NCBI GenBank assembly: GCA_028713205.1
Contig: JAQTOZ010000002.1
Span: 1 to 45,969 of the forward strand
Reading direction: 5' to 3'
Length of the DNA: 45,969 nt
From: Candidatus Omnitrophota bacterium
GTDB taxonomy: Bacteria; Omnitrophota; Omnitrophia; Omnitrophales; Aquincolibacteriaceae
In this document: positions 3,314 to 27,923 of the stretch, one piece after another
Layout of the letters: each line of letters starts with the position of its first letter
How positions within the stretch are numbered: position 1 is the first letter of the stretch
Translations under genes and position numbers: made by a program
The notes under the pieces: generated by a model
The model's input: the letters and a program-made list of their open reading frames with translations, nothing else
Told to the model about the DNA's origin: nothing
Databases searched by the model: none

Positions 3314-3317
3314 TGAG

Positions 3318-4226: not shown

Positions 4227-4230
4227 TGGG

Positions 4231-4905
4231 ATGCAGGAGTTGACGGAAATCGTGATGGTGTTTCTCATCCTGGCCAATTTGTGGTTGCTGGCCTCAAGCC
4301 GGTTGATGGTGTGCATTCGTATTGTGGCTTGCCAGGGAATTGTGATCAGCCTGCTGCCTTTTTTGATCAATCGGCATCTGTTGCTGACGGAATTTCTGGC
4401 CGTCGCGGGCGTGACCGCGGCCTTAAAAGGTTTTGTCTTCCCGTGGCTTTTAAGGCGCGCCATGCGCGAAGCCAAAGTGCGCCGGGAGATCGAAACCTCC
4501 GTGCCTTATTCGGTTTCGGTTTTGATCGGGATTCTGATCTTGGCGATTTCGCTCTGGATCAGTTCGCGGTTGCCGATGCCAAAACCCGAGCTGACGGAAC
4601 TGATCGTGCCGGTTTCGTTCTTCACGATCCTGGTCGGGCTTTTTGTGATCGTCAGCCGCGTGATGGCCTTGAGCCAGGTGCTCGGTTATCTCGTCTTCGA
4701 AAACGGCATTTATGCTTTTGGCGTGGCCCTGCTCCTGGAGCAGCCGCTTTGGGTGGAACTGGGAATTTTGCTGGATGTTTTCGTCGCGGTTTTTGTTATG
4801 GGCATTATGATTTTTCATATTAGCCGGGAATTCGACAACATCAATACGGATCAACTGAGTGAATTGGCGGACTGGAATTCCCCGGAGAAGGAAGGTCGCC
4901 GATGA
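4231..4905 (+). CDS. HyfE-like small membrane subunit (NuoK-related)
   Basis: 224-aa hydrophobic protein in the position of HyfE. It has a LGYLVFENGIYAFGVALL-type segment. ATG lies 4 nt after the upstream stop, with GAGGTGA in front. Confidence 0.65.
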   Translation: MQELTEIVMVFLILANLWLLASSRLMVCIRIVACQGIVISLLPFLINRHLLLTEFLAVAGVTAALKGFVFPWLLRRAMREAKVRREIETSVPYSVSVLIGILILAISLWISSRLPMPKPELTELIVPVSFFTILVGLFVIVSRVMALSQVLGYLVFENGIYAFGVALLLEQPLWVELGILLDVFVAVFVMGIMIFHISREFDNINTDQLSELADWNSPEKEGRR

Positions 4906-6383: not shown

Positions 6384-7903
6384 GCGGCGCTGCCTTTCTT
6401 TCGATCAGGAACGGGGACATTCTCCGGCTGAAAGATGTCCCGCATCTGGCTCCGGCGGAATTCAGAGACCATATTCTCCGGGGCGTCGACAGCGGCTGGC
6501 GTATCGTGAGCCTTTTCGGGAAACCGATTGCCGACCGCTATGTCCGTTTATACGCGGTCATGGCCAATGACCGGCAGGGTTCTTTGTCTTTGTGCTCGGC
6601 GGACGTGACCGACCAATATCCGGCCCTGACGGGTGAATGCCCGCAGGCGCACTGGTTTGAACGCGAAATCGCCGAACAGTGGGGTGTTATTCCGAAAGGA
6701 CATCCTTGGCTTAAGCCAGTCCGCTTTCACGAGGTTTATCGTTTCGGTACGGATGCCTGGGGACGCGATCCCTCAAAAAAAATCCTCCCCGGTGTCACGG
6801 ATTTTTTTCAGGTCCGCGGTGAAGAAGTTCATGAAGTCGCCGTGGGGCCGGTACACGCCGGTGTGATCGAACCCGGCCATTTCCGCTTTCAGTGCCACGG
6901 CGAAAAGGTGTTTCATCTCGAGATCTCATTGGGCTATCAGCATCGCGGCGTGGAGCGTTCTTTGATCGGTGCGCCGGCCAAACGGGTTTTTCATTACATG
7001 GAAACCCTGGCAGGGGACACGACGATCGGACACGCGACGGCCTACGCGCAGGCCATGGAAACCTTGGCGCGCTGCAAGGTGCCGGCGCGTGCGCAGGCCC
7101 TGCGCGGCGTGATGCTCGAGCTCGAGCGTTTGGCGAATCACGCCGGTGATTTGGGCGCGCTGGCCGGTGATGTGGCTTATTTGCCGACGGCCTCTTATTG
7201 CGGACGCATTCGCGGGGATTTTTTAAATTTGTCCGCGCTGATTTGCGGCAGCCGGTTCGGGCGGGGCATGATTTTGCCGGGCGGCGTCCGTTTTGATTTG
7301 GATGAAAAAAATATTGCCGAATTGCTCAGCCGGTTGAACGGTATTTACAAAAATCTTTGCGGCGCCGTGAATTTGTTGTGGGACAGTCCGTCCGTCATGA
7401 ACCGTTTTGAAGGTACCGGGACCCTTTCGGCGGAGGCCTGTGAAAATTTAGGGCTGGTGGGGATCCCGGCACGCGCCTGCGGCCTTGAGCGGGACATCCG
7501 GTTTGATTTTCCGGCGGGGATTTACCGTTTGGCGCAGTTACCTGTATCCACGTATACCTCCGGCGATGTCTTCGCGCGCGCGTATGTGCGCTGGCTGGAG
7601 GTGCAGCGTTCCGTTGATTTCCTGCAAAATCAACTGGCCACGATGCCGGAAGGCCCGGTTTCGGAAACGCTCGCCCATCCTGCTTCGGAGACGCTGACGG
7701 TTTCACTGGTCGAAGGCTGGCGCGGCGAGATCTGCCACGTGGCCATGACCGACAAACACGGCCACATCGCCCATTACAAAGTCGTGGATCCCTCCTTCCA
7801 CAATTGGATGGGGCTGGCGATGGCGTTGCGCGGTGAACCGATTTCGGATTTCCCGTTGTGCAACAAGAGTTTTAATCTTTCCTATTGCGGACATGATCTT
7901 TAA
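6380..7903 (+). CDS. HycE/HyfG-like NuoC-NuoD fusion ('large subunit') lacking the NiFe-binding cysteine motifs
   Basis: The NuoC-like N-terminal part (QAHWFEREIAEQWGV) is fused to a NuoD/HycE-like part (GPVHAGVIEPGHFRF, LGYQHRGVE). ATG 6380 overlaps the upstream stop (ATGA). The track ORF start at 6035 lies inside the upstream gene. The L1 position reads ETLAGDTTIGHA and the C terminus reads DFPLCNKSFNLSYCGHDL. Confidence 0.8.
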   Translation: MSGAAFLSIRNGDILRLKDVPHLAPAEFRDHILRGVDSGWRIVSLFGKPIADRYVRLYAVMANDRQGSLSLCSADVTDQYPALTGECPQAHWFEREIAEQWGVIPKGHPWLKPVRFHEVYRFGTDAWGRDPSKKILPGVTDFFQVRGEEVHEVAVGPVHAGVIEPGHFRFQCHGEKVFHLEISLGYQHRGVERSLIGAPAKRVFHYMETLAGDTTIGHATAYAQAMETLARCKVPARAQALRGVMLELERLANHAGDLGALAGDVAYLPTASYCGRIRGDFLNLSALICGSRFGRGMILPGGVRFDLDEKNIAELLSRLNGIYKNLCGAVNLLWDSPSVMNRFEGTGTLSAEACENLGLVGIPARACGLERDIRFDFPAGIYRLAQLPVSTYTSGDVFARAYVRWLEVQRSVDFLQNQLATMPEGPVSETLAHPASETLTVSLVEGWRGEICHVAMTDKHGHIAHYKVVDPSFHNWMGLAMALRGEPISDFPLCNKSFNLSYCGHDL

Positions 7904-7914
7904 GGAGATTTAAC

Positions 7915-8670
7915 GTGTTCAAAGTTTTGTGGACCCGGTTACAGCAGAAGCGGCGTACCGTTTCTTTTCCCAAAGGGAAGGTGAGCCTTCCGGAAAGATT
8001 CCGGGGCTTGCCGCACATTGATACCGCGCGCTGTCCGGACCACTGCCAGGAATGTGCCAAGGCCTGTCCTCTGGATGCCGTCCGCGTCGACGGCAAGAAA
8101 TTTCAGTGGGACCTCGGGAAATGTTTGTTCTGCGCGGATTGTATGGAGGCCTGTCCCGCGCACGCGATCAGTTATTCCCGCGACTACCGGCTCGCTGTCC
8201 GGAAGAAGGAAAATCTGATTTTGGACGGGCCGACACTCGAGCTTGCGCAATCTCTGGGGAAGGAAATGAAACGTTTGTTTAAACGGTCGCTACGGCTGCG
8301 CCAGGTTAGCGCGGGCGGGTGCAATGCCTGTGAGGCGGACGTGAATGTGCTGACGACGGTCGTGTTTGACCTTGCCCGGTTCGGTATTGATTTTGTTGCC
8401 TCGCCCCGGCATGCGGACGGGCTGCTCATTACGGGTCCGGTCACGGACAATATGAAATTGGCCCTGGAAAAAACTTATCAGGCGGTCCCGCATCCCAAGC
8501 TGGTGATTGCGGTAGGGGCCTGCGCCATTTCCGGCGGGCCGTACCGGGACCATGCCGAAACGCATAACGGTGCCGACAGTGTTGTCCCCGTGGACCTCTA
8601 TATTCCAGGCTGTCCGCCGCACCCGTTGACCACCTTGGACGGACTGCTCCGGCTTTTGGGCCGGCTGTGA
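7915..8670 (+). CDS. Fusion of a 2x[4Fe-4S] ferredoxin (HycF/NuoI-like) and a NuoB/HycG-like small subunit
   Basis: The N-terminal part has CPDHCQECAKACP and CLFCADCMEACP. The C-terminal part has the NuoB signature GGCNACE, GACAISGG and IPGCPPHP. GTG start is preceded by AAGGAG. Confidence 0.8.
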   Translation: MFKVLWTRLQQKRRTVSFPKGKVSLPERFRGLPHIDTARCPDHCQECAKACPLDAVRVDGKKFQWDLGKCLFCADCMEACPAHAISYSRDYRLAVRKKENLILDGPTLELAQSLGKEMKRLFKRSLRLRQVSAGGCNACEADVNVLTTVVFDLARFGIDFVASPRHADGLLITGPVTDNMKLALEKTYQAVPHPKLVIAVGACAISGGPYRDHAETHNGADSVVPVDLYIPGCPPHPLTTLDGLLRLLGRL

Positions 8671-12093: not shown

Positions 12094-12447
12094 GTGCCGT
12101 TTATGCATCCCAAATATCGCAAAATGCTGAGCGTGATGAAGCTGAAGGAAAAAAAGCGGCGGCGTAACAAAGACTCCGAGCTGTGGCATCTTTATATCCT
12201 CCGTTGTCAGGACGGGTCGCTTTACACGGGAGTGACGAAAGATTTGGCGCGGCGGTTCAAAATGCATAATGACGGCAAGGCCTCACGATATACGCGCGTG
12301 CGGCGGCCGGTCGAAATGATCTATCATCAGGAATGCGGGAGCCGGACGCAGGCGTTGGTCCGGGAATGCGCGGTCAAATCGCTTCCGAAAAAAAAGAAAT
12401 TGGAAATCGTGAATGCTGGCAAAGTGAACGTTTCTCAAGGAGGTTAA
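12094..12447 (+). CDS. GIY-YIG domain protein (UPF0213-like)
   Basis: WHLYILRCQDGSLYTGVTKDLARRFKMHNDG ... ECAVKSLPKKKK. The start is uncertain: GTG 12094, ATG 12103 or ATG 12136. Confidence 0.75.
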   Translation: MPFMHPKYRKMLSVMKLKEKKRRRNKDSELWHLYILRCQDGSLYTGVTKDLARRFKMHNDGKASRYTRVRRPVEMIYHQECGSRTQALVRECAVKSLPKKKKLEIVNAGKVNVSQGG

Positions 12448-12455
12448 AGCAATCG

Positions 12456-13073
12456 ATGAGTTCAGCCGTGGACACACTTACCGAACAATTAAGAGGCAAA
12501 GCCCTGGAGACGGTCAAGCGCCACAAGGCGTCCTGGATTGAGCTGGGGCAATACCTCGTGACGATCAATAAAGACAAGCTTTACAAAACCTGGGGTTTTT
12601 TGGCCTTCGACGCTTATTGCAAAAAAGAACTGCACATCAATCCGGCGACGGCGGCGAAGATGCTGAAATCCTATGCCTTTCTGGAAAAGGAAGAGCCCAG
12701 GATCGTCGCGACCGAATTCCCGCAAACGGAAAATCCCCGGGCGATTCCGAATTACGAGTCCGTGAATCTTTTGCGGCTGGCCAAGGAGAACAAAGCCATC
12801 ACCACACAGGAATTCGCCGGTCTGCGGGAAGCCGTACTGAACGAGGCCCGGGAACCCAAAGACGTCCGCGCGCGCGTGAAGGAAATTCTTTCGGACAAGG
12901 ATGAACGCGACGAAGTGGAGGTGCGCCGGGCCCATCGCAATACCGTGATCAAGCGTTTGGTCACGATGCTTGCCGGCGCCAGGCGGGAATTCGAAAGCGA
13001 GAATCTTCTTCCGGATTATCTCCTGAAGCAAATGAGCGAGCTGACGAAAAAACTCGAAGATCAGATGGAATGA
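12456..13073 (+). CDS. Hypothetical protein, possible HTH DNA-binding domain (DUF3102/ParB-HTH-like pattern)
   Basis: ATG 12456 is preceded by AAGGAGG. WIELGQYLVTINKDKLYKTWGFLAFDAYCKKELHINPATAAKMLKSYAFL has the look of a KorB/ParB-type HTH. The C-terminal half is charged and helical. The track ORF start at 12333 overlaps the GIY-YIG gene. Confidence 0.5.
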   Translation: MSSAVDTLTEQLRGKALETVKRHKASWIELGQYLVTINKDKLYKTWGFLAFDAYCKKELHINPATAAKMLKSYAFLEKEEPRIVATEFPQTENPRAIPNYESVNLLRLAKENKAITTQEFAGLREAVLNEAREPKDVRARVKEILSDKDERDEVEVRRAHRNTVIKRLVTMLAGARREFESENLLPDYLLKQMSELTKKLEDQME

Positions 13074-14059
13074 AAAACGAAATCCGGTCCAAAGCGGAAA
13101 GTTTTAAGGCAAAGTTCTTCGGTAATATCCGCCGGACATCTCCTTTATTGGTCCTGAGACTTTTGACGGCGATCATTGTCCTTTCGCCGTGGCTTGCCTT
13201 TTCGCTGTTCATGAGCTGGCTGAAAATGAATCACTGGCGCAAACCGAAGGTCTGCCGCGATTTTGTGGAGCGGCACAAACTGGCCTTCGAGGGCGTGGAC
13301 CCGGCGACGCTGACGGTCGAGGCGCGCTCGGGCGGAGTCAGCAATTCCAACGAGATTTGGCATTGCCGGAAAATCAGCGGCGAGGAAACCGGGTATTTTG
13401 TCAAAATTTTCGTTTCGGTCGGAAGTTTTTGGGCCAAACATCTTTCGCTGGTCAGTCCTTTTCCCCCGATTTACGGCGGCCGGACACATGAGCGGTTTAT
13501 CATCGACATGGTCAGCCGCGTCCAACTTGCCGAGTGCGGAATCCCGGTGCCGAAATTGATCGTGTATGATGCCGTCGCCAAAGTCATGGTGACGGATTTC
13601 CTGCGCGGCGAAACGGTCGATGATGCCCTGAAGCGGATCGCGGGCAAAGACGTGGTGGACCCGGACGACGTGGATATTATCCGCCAATGCGGGATTGGTT
13701 TGGCGAAAGTGCACAGGGCCGGGTTTTCGTTGATCGATACACAACCCGCGAATTGTATCTGGGTCAAAGCGGAGAAAAAGGTCTATTTCACGGACCTCGA
13801 GTTTTGCACGCGCCAGGACAAAAGGGTTTGGGACGTCGGATTTTTTCTTTGTTTTCTGGCGTTACGGTTGACGGGGAGCGTCAAGAAACTCATTCAGGAA
13901 ATCTTTCTGCAGAATTACCAGATTGAGCGGCAGCTGAATTTGACCGAGGTGGCCGAAATTCAGCATCAGATGCGCGAATATTTGCCGATCTTTCAAACAG
14001 TGCTGGATTTGCGGCAGTATACGCCCGAAGAGTTGTTGACCGAGCTGGTGAGCGGGTAA
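13070..14059 (+). CDS. Membrane-anchored protein-kinase-like fold phosphotransferase (APH/choline-kinase/LPS-kinase type)
   Basis: N-terminal TM segment (LLVLRLLTAIIVLSPWLAFSLF). Motifs: GGVSNSNEIW (Gly-rich loop), YFVKIF (Lys), LIDTQPANCIW (catalytic loop) and YFTDLEF (metal-binding Asp). ATGA overlap with the upstream CDS. Confidence 0.55.
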   Translation: MKNEIRSKAESFKAKFFGNIRRTSPLLVLRLLTAIIVLSPWLAFSLFMSWLKMNHWRKPKVCRDFVERHKLAFEGVDPATLTVEARSGGVSNSNEIWHCRKISGEETGYFVKIFVSVGSFWAKHLSLVSPFPPIYGGRTHERFIIDMVSRVQLAECGIPVPKLIVYDAVAKVMVTDFLRGETVDDALKRIAGKDVVDPDDVDIIRQCGIGLAKVHRAGFSLIDTQPANCIWVKAEKKVYFTDLEFCTRQDKRVWDVGFFLCFLALRLTGSVKKLIQEIFLQNYQIERQLNLTEVAEIQHQMREYLPIFQTVLDLRQYTPEELLTELVSG

Positions 14060-15489: not shown

Positions 15490-15625
15490 TGAAGCGATCA
15501 GCGTTCTGCTTTCAGCCTTCGGCCAAAGAGGATCCAGGACGCGCGACGACAGACAACCGACCACCGACTCCAGACCTAAAAAACAATCGGCAGGAGGCAG
15601 TCGGCAATTTTGGACGCAGCGAGAC

Positions 15626-15701
15626 GAAACTCAAGTCCCGAAACTCAAGTCCCGAGACTCAAGTCCCGAGACTCAAGTCCCAGGACTCAAGACCCAAGAC
15701 C
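15626..15701. repeat. 14-bp tandem repeat, about 5.4 copies (GARACTCAAGTCCC)
   Basis: Units at 15626, 15640, 15654, 15668 and 15682 (the last degenerate, AGGACTCAAGACCC), plus a partial unit. Confidence 0.9.
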
Positions 15702-15790: not shown

Positions 15791-15952
15791 GTCTTTGGGC
15801 TTGATCACAGGATATGGATTAAGATAGACTGAAGCCTTGTCGTATATATATATGGGCATCATTCCTGGTCTTACGACGACGTCAGCTAGAAGATTTCTTT
15901 TAATCACGAAGGTTTTTATAACCACGCTCTTATTTGCAGAGCTTAGGATATT

Positions 15953-18900
15953 ATGAGTTCATTCCAGTCCGTGATCGATAAAGCTCGCCAGAAGCTGCTT
16001 GCCCAAAAGGATCAAACCGAGGGCCGGAATCCGCCGGCTCCGCCAAGTGCAGAACCTCAAATCTTCGCCGGCTGGAATCATATGCTGGGGGAACTCGGCT
16101 TGTTGCTGGAGTCCTTTGAATCCGTGATTCAAGAGATCGATTCCGAGAAATCCTTTATTCAAAAAATCCGGAATCTCGACGGGAAAAGTGTCCCGGCCTC
16201 CCGTTTTAAAATGGAATCCCTGCGGAAATCGCTGAAGGATGCGATCTTTACCGCGGAGGCCCTGGCGGCGCTCGAAACCCGCCAGATTTTGACCAGCCAT
16301 AGCCGTTTGGAATCGGCCGAGGAGGCCGTCCGGGATTTGGAGAAGAAACTTGGCGAAAATTCGTTTGGCTCGACCCGGGAGGTCGCGCAACTGCGCGAGG
16401 AGCTGAAAAAATCCCGGGAACAAACGGATGATTTGCGCCGCCGGCTGGCGGCATCGGAAACCGATCAGCGCCAGGCCAAAGACCAGATGACGGCTTTGGA
16501 ACTTCGCAAAAACCGTTTCGAAGCCGAACTCCAGGAAATTCGCGGGCAAAGCGGTGACTTCGAAGAAAAATCCGCCGAACTTTTAAAGCAAATCGAAACG
16601 CTGGAATCGGAAAAACACGAGCTTGAATCCAAACACACCCGGTTGGAATTGGAGAAGGCCGAGCTCAAGAGGTCCTTGCTTCAGAAGCAGACGGAGTATG
16701 CGCGTTTTGTGGAAGACAGTGTCCGTTTGCGTCATGAACTTGAAGCGGAGCTTGGCAAGGTGCGCAATGAATCCATTAGCCTGAAAAACGAAGCGAAGGG
16801 CTTGCGAGCGCTCCTGGATATTGTCGAAGCGGACAAACGCGGTCTTGCGGAACAAAAGTCGGCAGCGGAAAAGCAAAAGGCCGAAATCGAAAAAGCCTTT
16901 GCGGATAAAGAACAGGAGTACCGCAGCCGGATGGACGAGAGCGCGCGTTTAAGCGGCGAATTTGAAAGAAAGCTTCTTGCCAAAGAAAAGGAATACGGGG
17001 AACTCGTCGAAGAGAGTTCCCGCACCCAAGGTGCGCTTGAGGCCGAGTTGATTCCGTTGCGCCAGGACATCGAGAAATGGAAAGCGCGTGCCGGAGAACT
17101 TTGGATGCAAGTGGAGACGCTGGAAAAGGGCAGGCAGGAAACCGATTCCACCCGCGCCGCTCTTGAAAAAGAAAAAGCGGATATTCAATCCGAACTCTTC
17201 CGGTTGCGTGACGAGGCCCGGACTTGGCAATCCAAGCATGATGAGATGGCTAACCGCATCGGACTTTTGGAGGTTGTCCGCAGGGATCTCGAAGCCGGTC
17301 AAGCGGCGGTTGCGGAAGAGAAGGGCAGGCTTGAAGCGATGCTCAAAGGGAAGGAAGCCGAGTGTCAGGGGTTGACGGAAGAAAATGCGCGCATGCGGGG
17401 GGAGATCGAGTCCGGGCTGCATGAATCCCTGGATAGGGTAAGGCAGTGGAAGTCTCGGTCCGAAGAATTGAGCAAAGAACTTGAGTCTTTGGAAGCGCAG
17501 AAGCGCGAACTCGAGGAGCAGCGGATCAAATTTGAATACGAAAAGGATGAGCTGCTGCAAAGGTTTAAAATTAAAGACGCGGAATACCGGGAAGTCGTCG
17601 AGCGCAGTGCCCAAATGCAGGGACGGCTTGAAGAAGATCTGCTGCGGTCGCGTGAACAGACCGGTGTTTGGCAAAGCAAGGCCGAAGAACTTTTAAGACA
17701 AATCGAATCTTTGGAAAAGACAAAACTGGAAATCGAGGCGAAGCTTGCGGACGCCCTCCGAGACAATGAAGCGCTCGCTCAGCAGCTGCAGGCGAAGAAT
17801 GCCGAACATCAGAATTTGGTAGAAGAGAGCGCGCGTATCCGGACAGAACTTGAGCGTGCTCTCGGGGATTCCCGGGAGGAATGCGGCAGCTGGAAAAGCA
17901 AGGTCGAAGAGCTGGTCCGGCAGCTTGAGGCGGAAGATGTGCTTAAGCGGGAAATCGAAGCCGATCGTTCTGCGAGAGCTCGGGAGAAAGAGTCCTTTGA
18001 GGAAATGCTCGCGGCCAAAGATGAGGAATACCGGCGCACGGTTGAGGAAAGCGCCCGTTTGCGGGCCGAGTTTGAGGCGGAGCTCCAGAAAACGCGCGAG
18101 GAATCCGGAAACTGGAAGATGAAAGCCGAGGAATATGTTCAGCGGCTTGAACGGATCGAGATCCAGGAACGTGAAATCGAAAAGCAACGGGCTTTTATCG
18201 AAAGCGAAAAGGCCGGGATCGATGAAAAACTTCTGGCCAAAGATTCGCAATATCTGCGTTTACTCGAAGACGGGGCGCAGGGGCGTTCTGCGCTCGAAGA
18301 CGAGCTCCGGCAATCCCGGGAAGAGACGACGGAATGGAAGGGCAAAATCAACGGTTTGGTCAAACAGCTCCAGGCCGTGGAATCCGCCAAGCGGGAGCTT
18401 GAAGAAAAGAAGTCCTTGATGGAAAGGACCGCGGCAGCCGCGGAGGCCAAGTTAGCCGTTCGCGAAGAAGAATTCCGCCGTGCGGGAGAAGAGAGCGCAA
18501 AACTGCGCGGGGCCCTTGAAAATGAATTATGGCAAGTCCGCCGGGACTCGAAGAAATGGGAAAGCGCGGCCGAGAAAGTGATGGTGGAGCGCCGTTTGTT
18601 TGAGCTCGAGAAACAGAAGCTCCAGCGTATCCTGATCAAGGGGCACCAGACGATCGAGGAGTGGCAAAACCGGTATAAAGAGGCCGTGATCGAGCTGGAG
18701 GCATTACGGAAGAATACGGCACCGGGACGGGAGCGGGAACAAAATCTATTTGATGCGCAAAACCGTGAAATCAACAAGTGGAAAGAGGCCTGCCAAGTCC
18801 TCGAGAAAAAGATGGCGGTCGCGCGTGATTTGTTCGTGCAACGTTTAGGCGATTGCGCCGAGGAGATTGATTCTTGGAAGCGTAAGGCCCAGGCGGCGGC

Positions 18901-19168
18901 CGATGCATTGCAAAAGGCATTGGAAAAAGAGAAGCCCCAGGCGGGCCAGGCCGCCAATGAATTCCGGCCGCGACCGGCGCGGGAAAATGTTTATGTGCTG
19001 ACAGAATCAGCGGCGGTTAAGGAAGCGAAGCGGAAGCTTGCCGAGAAAACAGAGAAAGAAGATATCCATAAGATGCAGCCGGTGGCGCCCAATGCGGATT
19101 CGGACAAAGGCAGCCGCAGCAGTATTTTTGAATTGCGCCGCTTTCAGGATATCATCGAAGGGGAATAA
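15953..19168 (+). CDS. Giant coiled-coil protein with tandem 74-residue modules (no recognisable enzymatic domain)
   Basis: Uninterrupted 1071-aa ORF, E/K/R/L/A/Q-rich, with no signal peptide or TM helix. The periodic motifs are described in the findings. Confidence 0.8.
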   Translation: MSSFQSVIDKARQKLLAQKDQTEGRNPPAPPSAEPQIFAGWNHMLGELGLLLESFESVIQEIDSEKSFIQKIRNLDGKSVPASRFKMESLRKSLKDAIFTAEALAALETRQILTSHSRLESAEEAVRDLEKKLGENSFGSTREVAQLREELKKSREQTDDLRRRLAASETDQRQAKDQMTALELRKNRFEAELQEIRGQSGDFEEKSAELLKQIETLESEKHELESKHTRLELEKAELKRSLLQKQTEYARFVEDSVRLRHELEAELGKVRNESISLKNEAKGLRALLDIVEADKRGLAEQKSAAEKQKAEIEKAFADKEQEYRSRMDESARLSGEFERKLLAKEKEYGELVEESSRTQGALEAELIPLRQDIEKWKARAGELWMQVETLEKGRQETDSTRAALEKEKADIQSELFRLRDEARTWQSKHDEMANRIGLLEVVRRDLEAGQAAVAEEKGRLEAMLKGKEAECQGLTEENARMRGEIESGLHESLDRVRQWKSRSEELSKELESLEAQKRELEEQRIKFEYEKDELLQRFKIKDAEYREVVERSAQMQGRLEEDLLRSREQTGVWQSKAEELLRQIESLEKTKLEIEAKLADALRDNEALAQQLQAKNAEHQNLVEESARIRTELERALGDSREECGSWKSKVEELVRQLEAEDVLKREIEADRSARAREKESFEEMLAAKDEEYRRTVEESARLRAEFEAELQKTREESGNWKMKAEEYVQRLERIEIQEREIEKQRAFIESEKAGIDEKLLAKDSQYLRLLEDGAQGRSALEDELRQSREETTEWKGKINGLVKQLQAVESAKRELEEKKSLMERTAAAAEAKLAVREEEFRRAGEESAKLRGALENELWQVRRDSKKWESAAEKVMVERRLFELEKQKLQRILIKGHQTIEEWQNRYKEAVIELEALRKNTAPGREREQNLFDAQNREINKWKEACQVLEKKMAVARDLFVQRLGDCAEEIDSWKRKAQAAADALQKALEKEKPQAGQAANEFRPRPARENVYVLTESAAVKEAKRKLAEKTEKEDIHKMQPVAPNADSDKGSRSSIFELRRFQDIIEGE
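16463..18907 (+). repeat. At least 10 tandem 222-nt (74-codon) protein-level repeats inside the coiled-coil CDS
   Basis: TGG codons at 17225, 17447, 17669, 17891, 18113, 18335, 18557 and 18779 are each exactly 222 nt apart. The lattice extends upstream to the TTC codon at 16559. Confidence 0.85.
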
Positions 19169-19220: not shown

Positions 19221-20195
19221 ATGACCAAAACTTTTTTTCTGATCTATTTGGCCCTTTTTCTTTTCAGTTCTGCCGATTTTGCTTACGGCGGTGCGGCGGA
19301 CCCGCGGCGGCTCAAGGCGGCGAAAGAAGCTCGGGCCCAGGCGGCTTTGATGCGGGCGCAGGCGGCGCAGGGGCAGCTTTCCCCGGAAATGGTGGCTGCG
19401 TATCAGGCCCAAGCGCAGGGGGGCCCCTCCACCGGGGGTGCGGCGACAGCCCAAAAACCCGGGACTTATGAATCACGTGTTTCGGGGCTTCCCAAACCTT
19501 CGGCTTCTTCGAAATTTCAAATGACGCCGGCGAAACCGGCGCAAAAACAAAGCTCCTTCCCGGTCGCAAAGACAAGTTCGGCTCCGGTGACCGTTTCTGC
19601 GGCACCCAAAGTGACAGTCGTTTCACCCTCTCCGGCGAAACCATCGGAAAGTACCGAGCCGTCTCCTTCGAAAACACAGCAGGTGATTGTCATCCCTCGT
19701 TCGGCCGGTTCTCCGGCCGGTTCGGGTGCGGGAACGCCGACGCAAGCGGTTCAACCCGTCACACCGAAGACGATTGTGTCGGCCTCGAGTCCGGCGACCG
19801 CCGCAAAACCCATTCCGGTGCCCAAGCCGGTGTCTCCCCCGACGTCTTCCGCGCCGGACATTGCCAAAGCGGTTCAGCAAATGAAAGTTACGAGTACCAA
19901 CTGGGGACGGATTCAAAGTCAGGAGACAAAGACGGCCATTGCGGGCTATTTCATCGCGGAATACAAACGGCGGGGCGTGATGATCAAAAACACACCGGAA
20001 TATTACGCCGGTGCGATTGACGAAATGACGCGGCAAAACCCGGATTTTCTTTCACAACCCTTCGACAAACTCCTTCGGTTTGTGTCGGTCATCGACTACG
20101 ATTATGACAACGGGCAAGACAAAGATCAGATGGTGTTACAGTTTCTGGGTCCCGAAGGTGCTAAACGTAACCGTCAGCGGCTTGGCTTGGAGTAA
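19221..20195 (+). CDS. Secreted protein with a long Pro/Ser/Ala/Thr-rich linker and a C-terminal globular domain of unknown function
   Basis: ATG 19221 gives the signal peptide MTKTFFLIYLALFLFSSADFAYG. About 200 aa of low-complexity PSAT-rich sequence follow, then WGRIQSQETKTAIAGYFIAEYKRRG...DYDYDNGQDKD. The track ORF start at 19038 overlaps the upstream gene. Confidence 0.6.
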   Translation: MTKTFFLIYLALFLFSSADFAYGGAADPRRLKAAKEARAQAALMRAQAAQGQLSPEMVAAYQAQAQGGPSTGGAATAQKPGTYESRVSGLPKPSASSKFQMTPAKPAQKQSSFPVAKTSSAPVTVSAAPKVTVVSPSPAKPSESTEPSPSKTQQVIVIPRSAGSPAGSGAGTPTQAVQPVTPKTIVSASSPATAAKPIPVPKPVSPPTSSAPDIAKAVQQMKVTSTNWGRIQSQETKTAIAGYFIAEYKRRGVMIKNTPEYYAGAIDEMTRQNPDFLSQPFDKLLRFVSVIDYDYDNGQDKDQMVLQFLGPEGAKRNRQRLGLE

Positions 20196-20205
20196 GGCGG
20201 TCCGG

Positions 20206-20679
20206 TCAATTCGATAGTTTGCACACGGACACTTTGATGAGCCCGGACCGGGTGTCCGCGATTTTTTGGAAGGCCCCCTTGGTCAAATCAATCAACCGGT
20301 TGAGACGTCTTGCCGGTCCCCGGTCGTTGACGACGCAGATCACCGATTTCCCGTTTTTCAGATTGGTGATTTTCAGGCGGGTCCCAAAAGGAAAATTCCA
20401 CGAAGCGCAAGTCATCCGGGAATCGTCAAAAATTTCCCCGTTCGCGGTTCTCAGGTTGATCATCGGATCGGATTCGCTGTACCAGGAAGCGACCCCGTAA
20501 TATCTCCGGACGGGTTTTACGATTTTGATGATCTTGGGTTTTTCGACTTTTTCCGGAAGCATCTGGATTCGCGGTATGGGGGGTAAGGTTTCCTGTAAAA
20601 CGGAAATCGGTTCCGCGGAGACAAGCGGAACCGCGATCAACATCATTGTTGCCAACGATCGTTTGATGCCAACTTTCAC
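20206..20679 (-). CDS. rlpA: RlpA-like (DPBB domain) septal-ring lytic transglycosylase family protein
   Basis: GVASWYSE...TANGEIFD...MTCASWNFPFGTRLKITNLKNGKSVICVVNDRGP is the RlpA double-psi beta-barrel signature. GTG 20679 is preceded by GGAAAGGAAAA and gives the signal peptide (M)KVGIKRSLATMMLIAVPLVSA. The ORF could extend to 20718. Confidence 0.75.
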   Translation of the reverse strand: MKVGIKRSLATMMLIAVPLVSAEPISVLQETLPPIPRIQMLPEKVEKPKIIKIVKPVRRYYGVASWYSESDPMINLRTANGEIFDDSRMTCASWNFPFGTRLKITNLKNGKSVICVVNDRGPARRLNRLIDLTKGAFQKIADTRSGLIKVSVCKLSN

Positions 20680-21151
20680 GAAAAGTTTTCCTTTCCGGCA
20701 ACCCAACCTCCCGCACACGAGATGTTTTTCGTGTGGTAGGGATTGTGGCTTTGCGTCTCCTGATTTCTCAGGATTTGCCCTTAATTAAAACTTAACATAA
20801 GATTTTAACTTTAGCAAATATCCGGGGTAACAAAACGGTTTATCTTTGAAAAAAGTCATGTGTTCTTTCGATTTTAAAGATCTTTAGTGTCAGGAGCGGG
20901 GCGCATGACTGACAGCATGGGACGTTGGTTTTTCATCCCGGCAGACGTGCCGGGAGATCCGCTTATTCGGGACTGATTTCCATGAATTCGCTGAGGCCGT
21001 CATGTCTGTATCATCATTCATGATCATGAGATACGTGAACAGATGGCCCCTCAGAGTAGATATTTCCCTCACGAAAATAAAACAGACTTGAAGGCCGGTG
21101 GAAGCCGGCATCGGCCATGTTAAAATCAAATCTGATATTAGAACTCCTTTG

Positions 21152-24587: not shown

Positions 24588-26744
24588 ATGAACTACGCTG
24601 TCTTATCCGCGATGGTCAATGGCATCACCAGCCTCTCGGTTGCGGTATTGGTATTCGCAAGAAACCGCAAAGACCCCATTCACCGTTGTTTTTTCGTTTT
24701 TGCTTTCAGTGTCAGTCTTTGGGCCTTCGGTTGTGTGTTGTGGCAATTGAGTACGGCGAGGGAGAGTGCCTTGTTCTGGATCCGTTTTGCCACGGTCGCG
24801 TCGATCATCATACCGGTCGTCTTTTTTGAATTTATCCTCAGATTGCTTGATTTGACCGCGTTCCCGGCTTGGCTTCGCCGGGTCAATTATGGTGTGGCGG
24901 GACTGATTGCCGCCGTGTCTTACAGCCCCTGGTTTATTCAAGACATCAAACCTGTTTTGGATTTCCCGTTCTGGCCGGTACCGGGCATTGCCTTTTATTT
25001 TTTCCGTGTGTTTTTCGTTGTGAACATACTCGTGGCCTATGTCCTGATGGCGGCGAGATGGAAATGTGTTCCCCCGCCGAACCGGGAAAAAATATTGTTT
25101 GTTTTTGTCGCGACGGCCATCGGTCTGCTCGGGGGCATGGCCAACCATTTCCTGTGGTTCGGGGCCAAATTTTTCCCGATCGGCAACGTCGGGGTCACCG
25201 TCAGTATTTTGATTTTGGCCTGTGCGGTCGCAGTCCATTGCCTCCTGGATATCGAGTTTTTCATCAAAAAGTCCCTTGTCTTTGCGGGATTGTTTGTCGG
25301 GATGATGGGCGTCGTGGCGATCGTGACGGCGGTGACGCAAGGGCTTCTGGGGCGGTATTTCCAGATCCCTTCGCTGGTCTCCAGATCGATCAGCGTTTTG
25401 ATCGCCATTCTGCTTTACGATCCGGTGCGACGATGGCTGGTGCATTTGACGGAGGACGTCCTGTTTCAGCAGGAGGTTGATTATGAGGCGATCGACCATG
25501 AGATTGCGGACCAGATCCAGATCACGGACCTCGCCCGGCAGGTGAAAAACATTGTCGGCAATTTCGAATCGGAGTTTGCGCTTGAGAATGCGGCCATTTT
25601 TATTTTTGACGAGGGGAAAAAGGAATTTCGCCTGGCCCATGGTATCGGCTACGACGCGGATTTGGAGGGGAGCGCTCTCCCCGGTCATCATCCGTTGGTT
25701 GCGTTTTTGAGTGAACATTCCGAGGGGGTCCTTCTCACAAGCCTATTTTCGGAGAACGCGCCGGCGGTGGTCAGAGATTTTTTCGCGTTTTGGAAAGCGG
25801 AAGTCTGCTGCAAAATCCCTTTCAAGGGCGCCGTGATCGGTATCCTTTTATTGGGCAAGAAAAAATCCGATCGTGATTTTACGCAAAAGGACATGGACTT
25901 TCTCGACCGTGTGGTGAAAAATCTCGGGGTCTCGATCAACAACGCAAAGTCCTTTAAATTCAAGGAAGATTATTATGCGTTGATGGCCGAGAAAAACAAA
26001 ACGGATGTCCTGGCGCGTTTAAGCGAAGGGATCGATCATGAAATCAAAAACCCTTTGAATGCCATCAAACCGGCGGCGCAACGGATCCAATCGATTCTGG
26101 GAAAAGGTCCCGCGATGCAGGACCCCGAAGCGCAAGCGAAGGTCCGGGAATATTTGGAGATGATTATCCGCAATACCGACCGGATCAACGGGATCATGAC
26201 GCGCCTCAGAAATTTTGCCAGGCCCGTGCGGACCTCGGACGGATTCAAGCTGGTCCCGATCCGTTTGCGGGACCTTGTCGAAGAGGCCATCGGTTTGGGC
26301 AACGCCCGGCAGTTCGAGACCGATGGGATTGTGATTGAAAACAATGTCCCGGAGGAGATTTATATTTTTGGGGATCACGCCTCGGTGGTCCAGGTCTTTT
26401 GGAATTTGATTGTGAATGCCTATCATGCCATCGATCAAACGGGCCGGATCACCATCGCGGCCCGGTTTTCCGAGGCGGACGGCAAGGTCCTGGCGGAAGT
26501 GACGGACACCGGAAAGGGGATTGCCTCCGAAAATATGGACAAAATATTCACTCCTTTTTTTACGACCAAACCGACCAACGTGGCACCCGACGGCGGGATG
26601 CGTTTTACGGGGACTGGGCTTGGTTTGTGTTATGTCAAACAATATGTCGAAAATTTGGGCGGTCATATCCGGTGCGCCAGTCAACTGAATGAAGGGACGT
26701 CCTTTTATCTAAAATTTTTGAGGGCCGATGCACCCAGAACCTAA
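24588..26744 (+). CDS. Sensor histidine kinase: N-terminal 7-TM module, GAF-like domain, HisKA, HATPase_c
   Basis: Seven hydrophobic helices in the first ~280 aa. H-box LSEGIDHEIKNPLNAI, N-box NLIVNAYHAI, G1 DTGKGI and G2 GTGLGL. Confidence 0.85.
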   Translation: MNYAVLSAMVNGITSLSVAVLVFARNRKDPIHRCFFVFAFSVSLWAFGCVLWQLSTARESALFWIRFATVASIIIPVVFFEFILRLLDLTAFPAWLRRVNYGVAGLIAAVSYSPWFIQDIKPVLDFPFWPVPGIAFYFFRVFFVVNILVAYVLMAARWKCVPPPNREKILFVFVATAIGLLGGMANHFLWFGAKFFPIGNVGVTVSILILACAVAVHCLLDIEFFIKKSLVFAGLFVGMMGVVAIVTAVTQGLLGRYFQIPSLVSRSISVLIAILLYDPVRRWLVHLTEDVLFQQEVDYEAIDHEIADQIQITDLARQVKNIVGNFESEFALENAAIFIFDEGKKEFRLAHGIGYDADLEGSALPGHHPLVAFLSEHSEGVLLTSLFSENAPAVVRDFFAFWKAEVCCKIPFKGAVIGILLLGKKKSDRDFTQKDMDFLDRVVKNLGVSINNAKSFKFKEDYYALMAEKNKTDVLARLSEGIDHEIKNPLNAIKPAAQRIQSILGKGPAMQDPEAQAKVREYLEMIIRNTDRINGIMTRLRNFARPVRTSDGFKLVPIRLRDLVEEAIGLGNARQFETDGIVIENNVPEEIYIFGDHASVVQVFWNLIVNAYHAIDQTGRITIAARFSEADGKVLAEVTDTGKGIASENMDKIFTPFFTTKPTNVAPDGGMRFTGTGLGLCYVKQYVENLGGHIRCASQLNEGTSFYLKFLRADAPRT

Positions 26745-27138
26745 AAGCAAAGCCAAAATTTTGATCGCTGACGATGAACCGGACACGCTCACTCTTTTCC
26801 GCGACGCGTTCGAGGAGGAGGGCTATCAGGTTTTTACCGTGTCCAATGGGACCGATGCCCCGCGGGTGATTCAGGCGGAAAGACCGGATGCGATCATCCT
26901 GGACCTTAAAATTCCGGGGACGGACGGTGAAACGATTCTTGCGGATCTCTTGCGTGAAAAGCCGGTCCAAGCGGCAAAAGTTTTTATCATGACGGGATTC
27001 AATGATTTTGATGTCACCAAAACGCGGGTCCGGAATCAATTTGGAGCGATTATTGCCGATTACTTAGAAAAGCCCGTGGATATTCATCAGGTCGTTGCAA
27101 TGATCAAATATCACCTGGGAGGGGAAAATCAATCATGA
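26728..27138 (+). CDS. Single-domain response regulator (receiver only)
   Basis: KILIADDEPD, AIILDLKIPGTDG and a conserved Lys region. 136 aa with no output domain. Overlaps the kinase gene by 17 nt. Confidence 0.85.
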   Translation: MHPEPKSKAKILIADDEPDTLTLFRDAFEEEGYQVFTVSNGTDAPRVIQAERPDAIILDLKIPGTDGETILADLLREKPVQAAKVFIMTGFNDFDVTKTRVRNQFGAIIADYLEKPVDIHQVVAMIKYHLGGENQS

Positions 27139-27923
27139 AGCGAATTGTCATTATCGATGATGAACTCGATAGCTTGCAAGTCATGCGGGATGTTTTGGAA
27201 GAATATGCCTGCCGCGTCTACACGGCGACGACGGGCAAACAGGGATTGAAATTGGTCGAGGAAGCGCAGCCCGATCTGGTTTTTCTCGATTTGCGGCTTC
27301 CCGATACGGACGGTGAAGAACTCCTGCCGAAGATCAAGGCCAAATATCCGCAGGCGAAAGTCGTCATCGGGACGGCTTACGGTGACCAGGCGAAGCGCGA
27401 AGCCCTTCTTTCGGGCGGGGCCGACGGTTTTTTCGATAAGCCGGTCGACCTTAATGCCTTTGAGAAGAAGGCACATGAACTCATCGGGCCTTTGAGCGAG
27501 ATCAACCTGCTGATGATTGATGATGAACCAGAATTTTGCCAGACGTTCAAGGACATTCTGGAAAATGAGCCGCGCACCCAATGGCGGGTGTCTGTCGCCC
27601 CGAACGGCGTCGAAGGGGTCCATCAAGCGGAAACGTTGATGCCGGATTTGATCTTGCTGGATATCTCTCTGAATTTGGAAGGGGATGTGCGGCCGCTTTC
27701 GACCGGTTTGGAAGTTTATCGCGAGCTCAAACGGCGCGGTTCTCAAATCCCGGTGATTGTGCTGGCCCCCTTTATCGATTCTTCGAATGCGGATGACCTG
27801 AACAAAGAGGGGTTGGGAACGATCTATTCCAAGTCGGACCTGATGGGTTTGGAAAACATGACGCATTTTTTAAACGTCCTCAAACGGATTGCCCTCCGGA
27901 GCGGTCAAAGTATTCGGAAGTAA
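27135..27923 (+). CDS. Response regulator with two tandem receiver domains and no output domain
   Basis: REC1: IVIIDDE ... LVFLDLRLPDTDG. REC2: LLMIDDE ... LILLDISL. ATGA overlap with the upstream gene. Confidence 0.8.
   Translation: MKRIVIIDDELDSLQVMRDVLEEYACRVYTATTGKQGLKLVEEAQPDLVFLDLRLPDTDGEELLPKIKAKYPQAKVVIGTAYGDQAKREALLSGGADGFFDKPVDLNAFEKKAHELIGPLSEINLLMIDDEPEFCQTFKDILENEPRTQWRVSVAPNGVEGVHQAETLMPDLILLDISLNLEGDVRPLSTGLEVYRELKRRGSQIPVIVLAPFIDSSNADDLNKEGLGTIYSKSDLMGLENMTHFLNVLKRIALRSGQSIRK

Follow-up and report, generated by a model that had tools for sequence, protein, structure and literature searches.

What maintains an exact 74-residue repeat along a long coiled-coil protein, and is its register read by anything in the cell? 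The question is raised by a gene for a 1071-residue product (P0001) in a 45,969-nt stretch of Candidatus Omnitrophota DNA (contig JAQTOZ010000002.1, hereafter the window; Table 1). To our knowledge, long coiled-coil rods with a super-period over heptads are rare in bacteria, Scy/FilP being the main described case. Our analysis points to a cytoplasmic structural protein, a two-stranded coiled-coil scaffold or filament rod of 74-residue modules with helical ends, an explanation to which we give about an even chance of being right.

Table 1. Positions in the window of the P0001 gene, the parts of its product and the adjoining gene
Feature	Residues	Coordinates	Strand	Basis and remarks
Whole gene	1071 aa	15953..19168	+	ORF listing and translation; acidic, 124 kDa, pI 5.4
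Shine-Dalgarno-like AGGA		15945..15948	+	Read from the sequence; 4 nt 5' of the ATG
N-terminal region	1-157	15953..16423	+	Colinear with aa 44-200 of P0002 (BLASTP)
Rod	158-897	16424..18643	+	Ten 74-residue lattice periods; autocorrelation, Fourier analysis, unit HMM, AF2
Rearranged double unit	306-453	16868..17311	+	Unit HMM phase offsets 0, +25, 0; Trp positions
C-terminal helical hairpin	856-992	18518..18928	+	AF2 on two-sequence alignment A5
Disordered tail	993-1055	18929..19117	+	AF2 pLDDT < 50; poorly conserved and gapped against P0002
Conserved C-terminal peptide		19118..19165	+	Alignments A3 and A5; AF2 short helix; hydrophobic moment
Downstream gene		19221..20195	+	Starts 53 nt past the stop of the P0001 gene; signal peptide present

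The Trp lattice and its age

The initial annotation had drawn attention to eight TGG codons in steps of exactly 222 nt, and their coordinates were confirmed (17225, 17447, 17669, 17891, 18113, 18335, 18557 and 18779). They encode W425, W499, W573, W647, W721, W795, W869 and W943, spaced by exactly 74 residues; when 14 Trp were placed at random, none of 20,000 trials put eight in one phase of period 74. The two sequence blocks that it had described are present as well, one around the lattice Trp (W-K/Q-x-K/R...E-E-L) and one 28 residues before it (Y/F...V-E-E-S-A-R...E-x-E-L). Its upstream extrapolation also stands, with F203 and L277 occupying the lattice positions of the first two units of the rod in place of Trp, and L277 aligned with W342 of the homologue P0002. 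BLOSUM62 autocorrelation over aa 150-1000 gave peaks only at lags 74, 148, 222, 296 and 370 (heights 0.66-0.90, against at most 0.17 at other lags).

The 74-residue lattice is real, but it does not occupy the whole of aa 171-985 with at least 10 modules; that count is a little too high, as the last Trp is part of the C-terminal region. W943 is not the Trp of a canonical unit: aa 898-971 are unmatched by the unit HMM and lie within the conserved C-terminal region, so the canonical lattice ends at 869. From 203 to 869 it spans nine intervals, consisting of eight regular units and a rearranged pair. The P0002 counterpart of W943 sits 86, not 74, residues past the preceding Trp.

The rearranged pair is the unit that had been described as split 25+49. 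W376 lies 25 residues beyond a lattice point and is, with W384, off the lattice within this double unit, where the unit HMM reads columns 1-36, then columns 5-73 at +25, then columns 25-72 back at 0. A block of 25 residues (about columns 11-35) occurs twice in one unit and is missing from the next (99 + 49 = 148), which restores the phase of the lattice.

The units of P0001 are only 45% identical in nucleotides and 30% in amino acids, so the repeat must be old. Where residues agree between units, the third-position identity is 0.41, and no DNA tandem repeat was detected in the gene by TRF. Together with the preservation of the lattice in P0002 at 22% identity, these values bear out the earlier view of an old periodicity rather than a recent duplication or an artefact.

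A distant homologue with the same lattice

P0002, a metagenomic protein of 1323 aa, was the only homologue found; public proteins, those of magnetotactic genomes among them, yielded no other, and the BipA locus of 80 related genomes carries no orthologue. In line with the annotation, which could place the protein in no known family, P0001 has no real match in Pfam, NCBIfam, PHROGs, PADLOC, PDB sequences or a Foldseek fold search, and a profile scan of 1.84 billion proteins gave no real match either, nor did phage and plasmid searches. Alleles of P0002 from three samples differ by four synonymous changes and one non-synonymous change.

The two proteins are colinear at both ends, and their best-conserved region is that of the C-terminal hairpin (28% over 230 aa). 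In P0002, seven Trp lie on one 74-residue phase across 740 residues, and the hydrophobic period (3.525) equals the 74/21 of P0001. Comparison of column hydrophobic profiles between the two proteins gives r = 0.85 at zero shift and no more than 0.56 at other shifts, and the unit HMM built from P0001 alone finds five matches in P0002 at phase 0 and one at -14. Common to both proteins are the 74-residue, 21-turn repeat, the core Trp at column 46, the N-terminal block and the motifs LFVQRL..C..EI..WKR and LRxFQ. P0001 and P0002 constitute a family that is new and very rare, though of a known kind.

The lattice might be no more than a relic of tandem 222-nt duplications in a coiled coil that is generic and dispensable, with a register that nothing reads. 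The units are 30% identical within P0001 and 17.6% between the two proteins, a difference that suggests lineage-specific expansion or homogenisation; members of the family are extremely rare and missing from the BipA loci of close relatives, and coiled coils resist out-of-phase indels anyway. However, the units of P0002 are near saturation (16% identical among themselves against 11% in an out-of-phase control), yet Trp phase, stutter position and column profile all persist. Indels do happen between the proteins, whose N-terminal alignment has gaps of 21, 25 and 14 residues, and the two phase shifts supported by the HMM are each undone exactly (+25 then -25 in P0001, -14 then +14 in P0002). We consider a register without a reader improbable.

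Judged from the two sequences, a lattice surviving in nearly dissimilar P0002 units, with its phase restored after shifts, is the signature expected when axial register is read, for example in a staggered assembly, by a chain that folds back or by a partner with a periodicity of its own. It also makes the idea of a segmented rod or ruler, raised in the initial annotation, appear more plausible. In its strongest form this idea holds that the lattice is itself functional, P0001 being a molecular ruler or periodic docking scaffold in which one equivalent site per 11-nm module spaces or counts copies of a partner, phase is restored and length changes by whole modules. Functional analogues are tropomyosin on actin and the axonemal CCDC39/40 ruler. 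The exact lattice in both proteins at 22% identity, with P0002 units only 16% identical, agrees with it, as do the compensated local shifts, which keep distal units in phase. Furthermore, the charged columns R29, E33, R40, E42, K47, E61 and E68 are conserved and surface-exposed in every unit of both proteins, and the homologues differ in the number of unit intervals (9 vs 11), as expected for length tuning by whole modules. But unequal recombination also yields gain and loss of whole units without any ruler function, the Trp is buried in the core rather than exposed on the surface, and the two loci have no conserved neighbouring gene in common and offer no candidate partner. The ruler, which includes a variant in which the rod lies along a periodic polymer, is on balance unlikely, though worth keeping in view; it would refine the preferred scaffold or filament explanation and not exclude it. 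Cells of Omnitrophota are reported to measure only about 0.2-0.3 um in width. If the ruler reading and the small cell size are both true, a rod of 100-120 nm would reach across a large part of the cell, and it could define one of the cell's dimensions or the spacing of an array inside it.

Predicted geometry of the rod and its helical ends

The hydrophobic Fourier peak of the rod lies at 3.52, that is 74/21, and each unit comprises 21 hydrophobic turns, equivalent to nine heptads plus one hendecad. A single 4-4 spacing occurs per unit (columns 28-32-36), in line with the regular stutters foreseen from the period. The lattice Trp occupies core position d (column 46); d positions are dominated by Leu (L/I/V/W), while a positions hold L/K/S/A, with conserved Lys or Ser at several of them. 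There is one Pro in the 740 residues of the rod. AF2 predicted P0001 to be nearly all helix (a full-length model of low confidence, pLDDT 59 at an alignment depth of 2), with rod helices of 265 and 299 residues that each run through 3-4 units without per-unit turns. One period measures about 11 nm and the whole rod about 100-110 nm.

Attractive g-to-e' (i+5) charge pairs exceed repulsive ones in both proteins (18 vs 8 in P0001, 11 vs 4 in P0002), and the i+5 attractive count is the highest among all registers in each. This charge pattern is that expected for parallel in-register dimers and, as far as sequence can tell, favours them; charge-stagger analysis gave no stagger common to the two proteins. 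A simple parallel in-register dimer alone leaves the restoration of phase after indels unexplained.

In the N-terminal region, which also holds a Pro-rich linker, an amphipathic helix (aa 3-20) and a W41/GEL...FE block are conserved. Helices 82-135 and 141-198 may pair as a hairpin (AF2 pLDDT 64-82 across aa 90-190); no PDB sequence relative was found for the N-terminal 206 aa. At the other end, AF2 on the two-sequence alignment predicted helix 856-921, turn NTAPG and helix 926-992 (pLDDT about 90), a putative hairpin which bears W869, W904, W943 and W975 and contains the conserved motif LFVQRL..C..EI..WKR. Its two helices of about 66 residues would pack antiparallel. The protein ends with the peptide SSIFELRRFQDIIEGE (LTQLRYFQEVVE in P0002), a short amphipathic helix at aa 1057-1068 according to AF2 and the hydrophobic moment, which is likely a docking motif.

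Taken together, P0001 would form a long two-stranded alpha-helical coiled-coil rod, probably parallel, about 100-110 nm in length and assembled from modules of about 11 nm, each with nine heptads, one hendecad and a Leu-rich d stripe including one conserved core Trp. The rod would be capped by helical ends, the N-terminal region on one side and the Trp-bearing hairpin on the other, with a disordered tail carrying the conserved docking peptide at the far end. Such a scaffold or filament-forming, coiled-coil-rich protein would be IF-like or Scy-like in a functional sense; its rods would pair with each other or with a partner in a register-dependent way, and selection on this association would maintain the 74-residue lattice. 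We infer the oligomeric state, the orientation, the self-assembly and the scaffold role from these features. If axial register is indeed read, the family would allow the selection of coiled-coil register to be studied in a clean natural system, and would give a first handle on the internal architecture of uncultivated, ultra-small Omnitrophota; if it is not, a well-defined orphan coiled-coil family is left, mainly of descriptive value.

Restoration of phase would also follow from a register-dependent antiparallel architecture, either a fold-back like an SMC arm without heads or two antiparallel chains. With antiparallel pairing distant units face each other, so indels must be compensated, and compensated shifts require a long-range reader of register. 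The C-terminal 137 residues (pLDDT about 90, two helices of about 66 residues and a 4-residue turn) fit this arrangement, the N-terminal helices offer a possible second hairpin in the model, and AF2 breaks the rod at 471-474 and 774-775. These breaks, however, are of low confidence and fall at non-conserved Gly, and the i+5 complementarity favours parallel in-register pairing. Similarly, Trp residues of P0001 are symmetric about the turn (904 + 943 = 2 x 923.5), but this symmetry is absent from P0002 (35 + 51). Neither hinge nor head domains were found, and an antiparallel rod seems to us a rather poor bet.

Location, neighbourhood and relation to known coiled coils

P0001 is predicted to be cytoplasmic and all-helical. 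Neither a TM nor a signal segment was found (maximum 19-residue Kyte-Doolittle hydropathy 0.89), nor any wall or membrane anchor motif; the N-terminus is hydrophilic, and no Pfam domain, enzymatic domains included, was matched. The original statement that ATPase head, signal peptide and TM segment are lacking therefore holds, the SMC match being confined to the arm.

The gene is flanked by a gene for a secreted protein and an RlpA-like gene, with a secreted MORN_2 repeat protein among the flanks. The product of the downstream gene is a secreted protein for which no family match was obtained; it has a signal peptide, a linker rich in P/S/A and, at its C-terminus, a domain of about 110 aa. No terminator-like site separates the two genes, which are possibly co-transcribed, and their adjacency is not conserved, a response regulator taking that position at the P0002 locus. 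P0002 is surrounded by response regulators, PilZ and a cyclase. The neighbourhood is not conserved and shows no link to cytoskeletal or cell-division genes.

Repetitive coiled coils with non-heptad breaks make up many surface fibrils, and secreted proteins are encoded on both sides of the gene (the MORN_2 repeat protein and the downstream signal-peptide protein). P0001 could accordingly be pictured as an M-protein-like fibril, secreted or at the surface, or as a contact-dependent effector, of an Omnitrophota cell that may be epibiotic or predatory. This is very hard to reconcile with the lack of signal peptide, TM segment and anchor motif, with the absence of secretion-system genes from the 46-kb window and with the position of P0002 among cytoplasmic signalling genes; we regard it as highly improbable, and membership of the M-protein-like fibrils was rejected on the same features of the N-terminus and hydropathy. 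A phage tape-measure protein was also rejected: PHROGs gave no match, tblastn found none among 50,697 phage records and none in IMG/VR, and the neighbours in the window are chromosomal housekeeping genes.

The proposed scaffold or filament rod resembles tropomyosin and the myosin/paramyosin rods, which are parallel two-stranded coiled coils with a functionally read super-period over heptads. In tropomyosin the super-period consists of actin-binding periods, and in myosin of 28/196-residue charge repeats with skip residues. They are a model for how the 74-residue lattice could matter, without homology: the period is 74 here and about 39 or 28/196 there, and no conserved charge stagger was found. 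Tropomyosin itself was rejected, as there is no PF00261 match and no autocorrelation peak near lag 39.

The spectrin repeat and the bacterial spectrin-like EzrA resemble P0001 in their tandem helical repeats with a conserved Trp per unit. Spectrin units are, however, three-helix bundles of about 106 residues with loops, and the spectrin repeat was rejected because the unit here is 74 residues, PF00435 is not matched, the rod has one Pro per 740 residues and its helices are unbroken for 265-299 residues.

With intermediate filament-like proteins (crescentin, lamin, keratin) P0001 shares the head-rod-tail order and an acidic rod in which stutters interrupt the heptads. The tripartite layout was found (head aa 1-157, rod 158-897, tail 993-1071), a loose architectural criterion and not evidence of homology. 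The rod lacks coil 1A/1B/2 and linkers and has a stutter every 74 residues rather than a single one, and Filament PF00038 was not matched. The best PDB sequence matches of the unit profile, lamin A/C and keratin 10 coil 2, were non-significant (E = 0.016-0.07).

The only database matches of P0001 are weak ones to coiled-coil arms of the SMC/Rad50/DndD type. TIGR02168 scored 42.6 bits against a cutoff of 567 bits and aligned only at model positions 202-477, within the arm, while the arms of DndD and LmuB scored about 20 bits. SMC/Rad50 membership was rejected, since neither SMC_N nor AAA was matched in Pfam and the head halves (Walker A/B) are absent; no hinge domain was found by Pfam.

Scy/FilP of Streptomyces are cytoskeletal coiled-coil proteins whose long rods are of a non-heptad type (Walshaw et al. 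2010, cited in PMC9858780). P0001 is like them in being bacterial and cytoplasmic, with a rod in the range of 1000 or more residues, a regular higher-order repeat, short ends and no enzymatic parts. The rods of Scy/FilP are hendecad-based (about 3.64-3.67 residues per turn) with Ala-rich cores and a DivIVA-like N-terminal domain (PMC9858780). In contrast, P0001 has a period of 3.52, one hendecad per 74 residues and a Leu-rich core with one Trp per unit; no DivIVA Pfam match was found at E <= 1, and there is no sequence homology to Scy/FilP.

Mad20, Mad25 and Mad26 are coiled-coil scaffolds that organise intracellular structure in deep-branching magnetotactic bacteria, including Omnitrophota (PMC12748827). 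Neither mam nor mad genes occur in the 46-kb window. Coming from a group that includes the same phylum, the Mad proteins show what such coiled-coil rods can do.

The 74-residue lattice of the rod

The window protein (1071 aa) is encoded by an uninterrupted ORF with AGGA 4 nt 5' of its ATG. Eight of its 14 Trp residues (425, 499, 573, 647, 721, 795, 869 and 943) are spaced by exactly 74 residues, which agrees with the eight TGG codons (17225 to 18779) reported in the initial annotation at exact 222-nt intervals, and when the 14 Trp were placed at random 20,000 times, eight never fell in one phase. Autocorrelation (BLOSUM62, aa 150-1000) revealed peaks at 74, 148, 222, 296 and 370 only, so the periodicity goes beyond Trp. 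The in-register consensus of the 74-residue units (ExEKxxLxxxLxAKxxEYRRxVEESARLRxELExELxxSREESGxWKSKAEELxxQLExxExxKRELE) contains both conserved blocks described earlier, with Tyr/Phe 28 residues ahead of Trp. Identity between units is 45% at the nucleotide and 30% at the amino-acid level, codons for identical residues agree at the third position in only 41% of cases, and TRF found no DNA tandem repeat in the gene. As judged from this divergence, the repeat is therefore old and neither a recent duplication nor an assembly artefact, as had been proposed. The extent first assigned to the lattice was only partly upheld. The stretch from F203 to W869 is canonical (nine intervals), while the unit of W943 is excluded, since aa 898-971 gave no match to the unit HMM and W943 is part of the C-terminal hairpin region; the corresponding residue of the homologue P0002 lies 86, not 74, residues past the preceding Trp.

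A single proline occurs among the 740 residues of the rod (aa 158-897), whose net charge is -30; in the Fourier spectrum of its hydrophobicity, one peak, at 3.52 residues (74/21), dominates. The strongly hydrophobic unit columns (7, 11, 18, 21/22, 28, 32, 36, 46, 53, 57, 60 and 67; Trp is column 46) follow 3-4 spacing except for a single 4-4 step at 28-32-36. The unit is thus composed of nine heptads and one hendecad, equivalent to ten heptads with a four-residue stutter, in line with the regular stutters expected from a period of 74. The lattice Trp occupies a d position; d positions are mostly Leu, and at the a positions Leu is mixed with conserved Lys (columns 4, 14 and 64) and Ser/Ala (columns 25, 39, 43 and 50). 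Charge pairs from g to i+5 are attractive in 18 cases and repulsive in 8, the attractive count being the highest of all registers. Leu at d, polar a positions and these g pairs form a sequence pattern that points to a parallel, in-register two-stranded coiled coil. At 0.1485 nm per residue, the computed length is 11.0 nm for the unit and about 97-110 nm for the rod. The full-length AF2 model, of low confidence (mean pLDDT 59, alignment depth 2), is predicted as almost pure helix, and it contains individual helices, 265 and 299 residues long, that cross several units with no per-unit turns, by which spectrin-like bundles are disfavoured. The maximum Kyte-Doolittle value over 19 residues is 0.89, a level without any hydrophobic segment, so the protein has neither TM helix nor signal peptide, as previously noted.

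The 25+49 split noticed in one unit is real, and its first description was less specific than the arrangement found here: one unit carries two copies of a 25-residue block (about columns 11-35) and the next carries none, giving abnormal units of 99 (74 + 25) and 49 (7 x 7) residues. The unit HMM phase offsets across this double unit are 0, +25 and 0. The 25-residue block holds the stutter, which accounts for the lengths of the two abnormal units, and heptad phase is kept throughout.

A distant homologue and the reach of the searches

Full-length word-index search of 5.8 billion clusters, in which the best 8000 candidates were scored, obtained one real relative, P0002, a metagenomic protein of 1323 aa (E = 1.2e-8, 22% identity). 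It is present in three metagenome assemblies, whose copies differ by 4 synonymous changes and 1 non-synonymous change. By BLASTP, the N-terminal 410 and C-terminal 215 residues are colinear with the window protein, and F203 and L277 of the latter align with L268 and W342 of P0002. Seven Trp of P0002 (342, 564, 638, 712, 860, 934 and 1082) fall in one 74-phase over 740 residues (0 of 20,000 random placements), and of all periods from 30 to 129, none gathers more Trp in one phase than 74 (together with 37, which divides it). Hydrophobic residues of P0002 recur with a period of 3.525 (74/21). After phasing on Trp, the column hydrophobic profiles of the two proteins correlated at r = 0.85 at zero shift and at most 0.56 elsewhere. 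With a unit HMM built from the window protein alone, five matches to P0002 were obtained at phase 0 and one at -14. Unit identity is 16% within P0002 and 17.6% between the proteins (11% in the out-of-phase control), and the lattice has therefore outlived most sequence similarity. With nine lattice intervals in the window protein and 11 in P0002, their lengths differ by whole modules.

The earlier view that the protein belongs to no known family was borne out. Pfam gave no family (best E = 0.25) and PHROGs no match; NCBIfam SMC matches (42.6 bits vs the 567-bit cutoff) and PADLOC matches to DndD, LmuB and PbeC (about 20 bits) were rejected as coiled-coil arm noise. PDB sequences matched the unit profile with lamin and keratin at best (E >= 0.016), and no PDB relatives were found for the end domains. 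Foldseek against PDB returned no E below 0.4 for the full-length model and a single match (E = 9.4) for the C-terminal model. The search with a single-unit profile proposed in the initial annotation was run with HMMER over 1.84 billion representative proteins, using a profile from eight units, and matched no characterised repeat family: it recovered the protein itself and P0003, P0004 and P0005 only. These three were rejected as relatives, as they consist of tandem repeats, about 55, 35 and 75 aa long, whose copies are nearly identical, and reached E <= 1e-3 solely by summing many weak matches, a caution for repeat-profile searches. Since the same profile failed to retrieve P0002, a genuine homologue, at E <= 1e-3, the absence of further matches carries limited weight. 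Word-index searches, which are also limited by coiled-coil low-complexity words, returned only P0002 itself when P0002 was the query, and nothing, not even either input protein, with the C-terminal profile A3 (best 8000 candidates scored in each). Scans for loci with profiles A3/A4 gave zero matches in genome contigs and zero in viral contigs; the lone match in metagenome contigs was rejected as a spurious high-GC coiled coil. No match was found in phages and plasmids by tblastn. The literature searched contained no mention of a 74-residue repeat; on coiled-coil proteins of Omnitrophota, only the magnetosome Mad proteins were relevant. The window protein and P0002 form a new and very sparsely populated family of coiled-coil rods with a long period. 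That the family is very rare can be stated safely; a count of two members is not proven, because the unit profile missed P0002 and word searches score the best 8000 candidates.

Rod ends and long-range register

In the AF2 model of aa 855-1071, helices 856-921 and 926-992 (about 66 residues each, pLDDT about 90) are joined by NTAPG; beyond them come a disordered tail and, at the terminus, a short helix. The two helices are read as a probable antiparallel hairpin, and in the window protein W904 and W943 lie symmetrically on either side of the NTAPG turn. The conserved C-terminal peptide of the window protein is SIFELRRFQDIIE; the motif LFVQRL..C..EI..WKR and a terminal LRxFQ peptide are common to both proteins (BLASTP).

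Like the doubled and missing block of the window protein, P0002 contains a compensated shift: 14 residues are missing ahead of W402, W402 and W476 lie at -14, and after fourteen extra residues (505-518) the next unit is back at phase 0. An apparent +11/-11 Trp shift at W797 was rejected as a compensated indel, with no HMM evidence that the rest of the unit is shifted; W797 may be a relocated Trp. Phase restoration is the most informative clue to mechanism. An isolated parallel homodimer does not need global register, because an indel sits in both chains. Exact compensation in two lineages and a lattice surviving at 16% unit identity imply, as far as sequences can tell, that register is read over long range by something. 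Candidates for such a reader are the association of rods with one another, staggered or antiparallel, a chain that folds back on itself, and a periodic partner for which the rod would be a ruler. An inter-rod charge-complementarity scan found no preferred stagger common to both proteins, its sole recurring signal (+/-4 residues) being the intrahelical salt-bridge pattern. The conceptually nearest systems are the rods of tropomyosin and myosin, in which a partner or a stagger reads the super-period. The functionally nearest known proteins are bacterial coiled-coil cytoskeletal proteins, namely Scy/FilP (PMC9858780), which have non-heptad super-repeats, and IF-like proteins. The window protein fails the defining tests of SMC, spectrin, DivIVA/Scy, tropomyosin, M-protein-like fibrils and tape-measure proteins. 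We consider it about equally probable, right or wrong, that the protein is a structural scaffold or filament-former of the cytoplasm, with a two-stranded, probably parallel rod about 100 nm long, ends that would be capped by hairpins and a terminal peptide that would serve for docking. The lattice evidence is clean and unusual.

Genomic context

The window is ordinary chromosome, with genes for an Mbh/Mrp-like hydrogenase cluster, RluA-type pseudouridine synthase, HI0933-like oxidoreductase, BipA (89% identical to BipA of Omnitrophica MAGs), RsmB, class II aldolase and GH57 branching enzyme, in addition to the features collected in the table. The BipA identity places the organism in Candidatus Omnitrophota.

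Features around the gene of the window protein
Feature	Position	Strand	Remarks
Group-4 [NiFe] hydrogenase-like cluster (membrane-bound, Mbh/Ech-type)	1124-8670	+	Mrp-antiporter-like subunits; two Proton_antipo_M proteins, NADHdh protein, fused 30-kDa/49-kDa subunit, 20-kDa subunit fused to 4Fe-4S ferredoxin domain
Unknown ORF	12333-13073		overlapped by next ORF (4 nt)
329-aa ORF	13070-14059	+	N-terminal hydrophobic segment; weak PADLOC PD-T4-6 match (E = 5e-4)
MORN_2 protein, 455 aa	14122-15489	+	signal peptide, many repeats (PF07661, E = 6e-32); directly upstream of window protein gene
Window protein gene	15953-19168	+	1071 aa
Secreted-protein gene	19221-20195	+	start 53 nt past preceding stop; no terminator-like site between
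RlpA-like DPBB_1 gene (lytic-transglycosylase-like)	20206-20718	-	converges on window protein operon; riboswitch upstream
Terminator-like hairpin	20633-20608	-	after riboswitch
c-di-GMP-I riboswitch	20694-20789	-	RF01051, 63.7 bits, E = 2.8e-10
Histidine kinase	24588-27923	+	N-terminal 7TM domain (HisKA_7TM), then three receiver-like stretches, 26755-27123, 27132-27491 and 27504-27815 (tblastn, response regulators of P0002 locus as queries)

The window protein gene and the secreted-protein gene may be co-transcribed. The product of the latter has a signal peptide, a P/S/A/Q-rich low-complexity linker of roughly 190 aa and, at the C terminus, a domain of about 110 aa, and gave no Pfam, PHROGs or PADLOC match. 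The BipA neighbourhood is poorly conserved among 80 related-genome loci (Omnitrophota and Nitrospirota), and no homologue was found at any of them (0/80; tblastn and unit HMM on six-frame ORFs). The P0002 locus (L083 1-16368, P0002/P0006; GC 51.5%, close to the 52.1% of the window) is densely packed with signalling genes and encodes five receiver-domain proteins, DUF6901, CBS-PilZ, HAMP-guanylate/adenylate cyclase, PG_binding_1 and MEDS proteins, and no neighbours beyond generic receiver domains are common to the two loci. With neither a conserved nor a shared neighbourhood, context gives no functional assignment.

The window protein gene is preceded by 460 nt of intergenic DNA, in which a 14-nt tandem repeat (CGAGACTCAAGTCC, 5.4 copies, 91% matches) was detected at 15625-15700, with no Rfam match there. 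A c-di-GMP link is present at both loci, through the riboswitch in the window and the c-di-GMP-binding CBS-PilZ protein beside P0002, and is regarded as a thematic coincidence.
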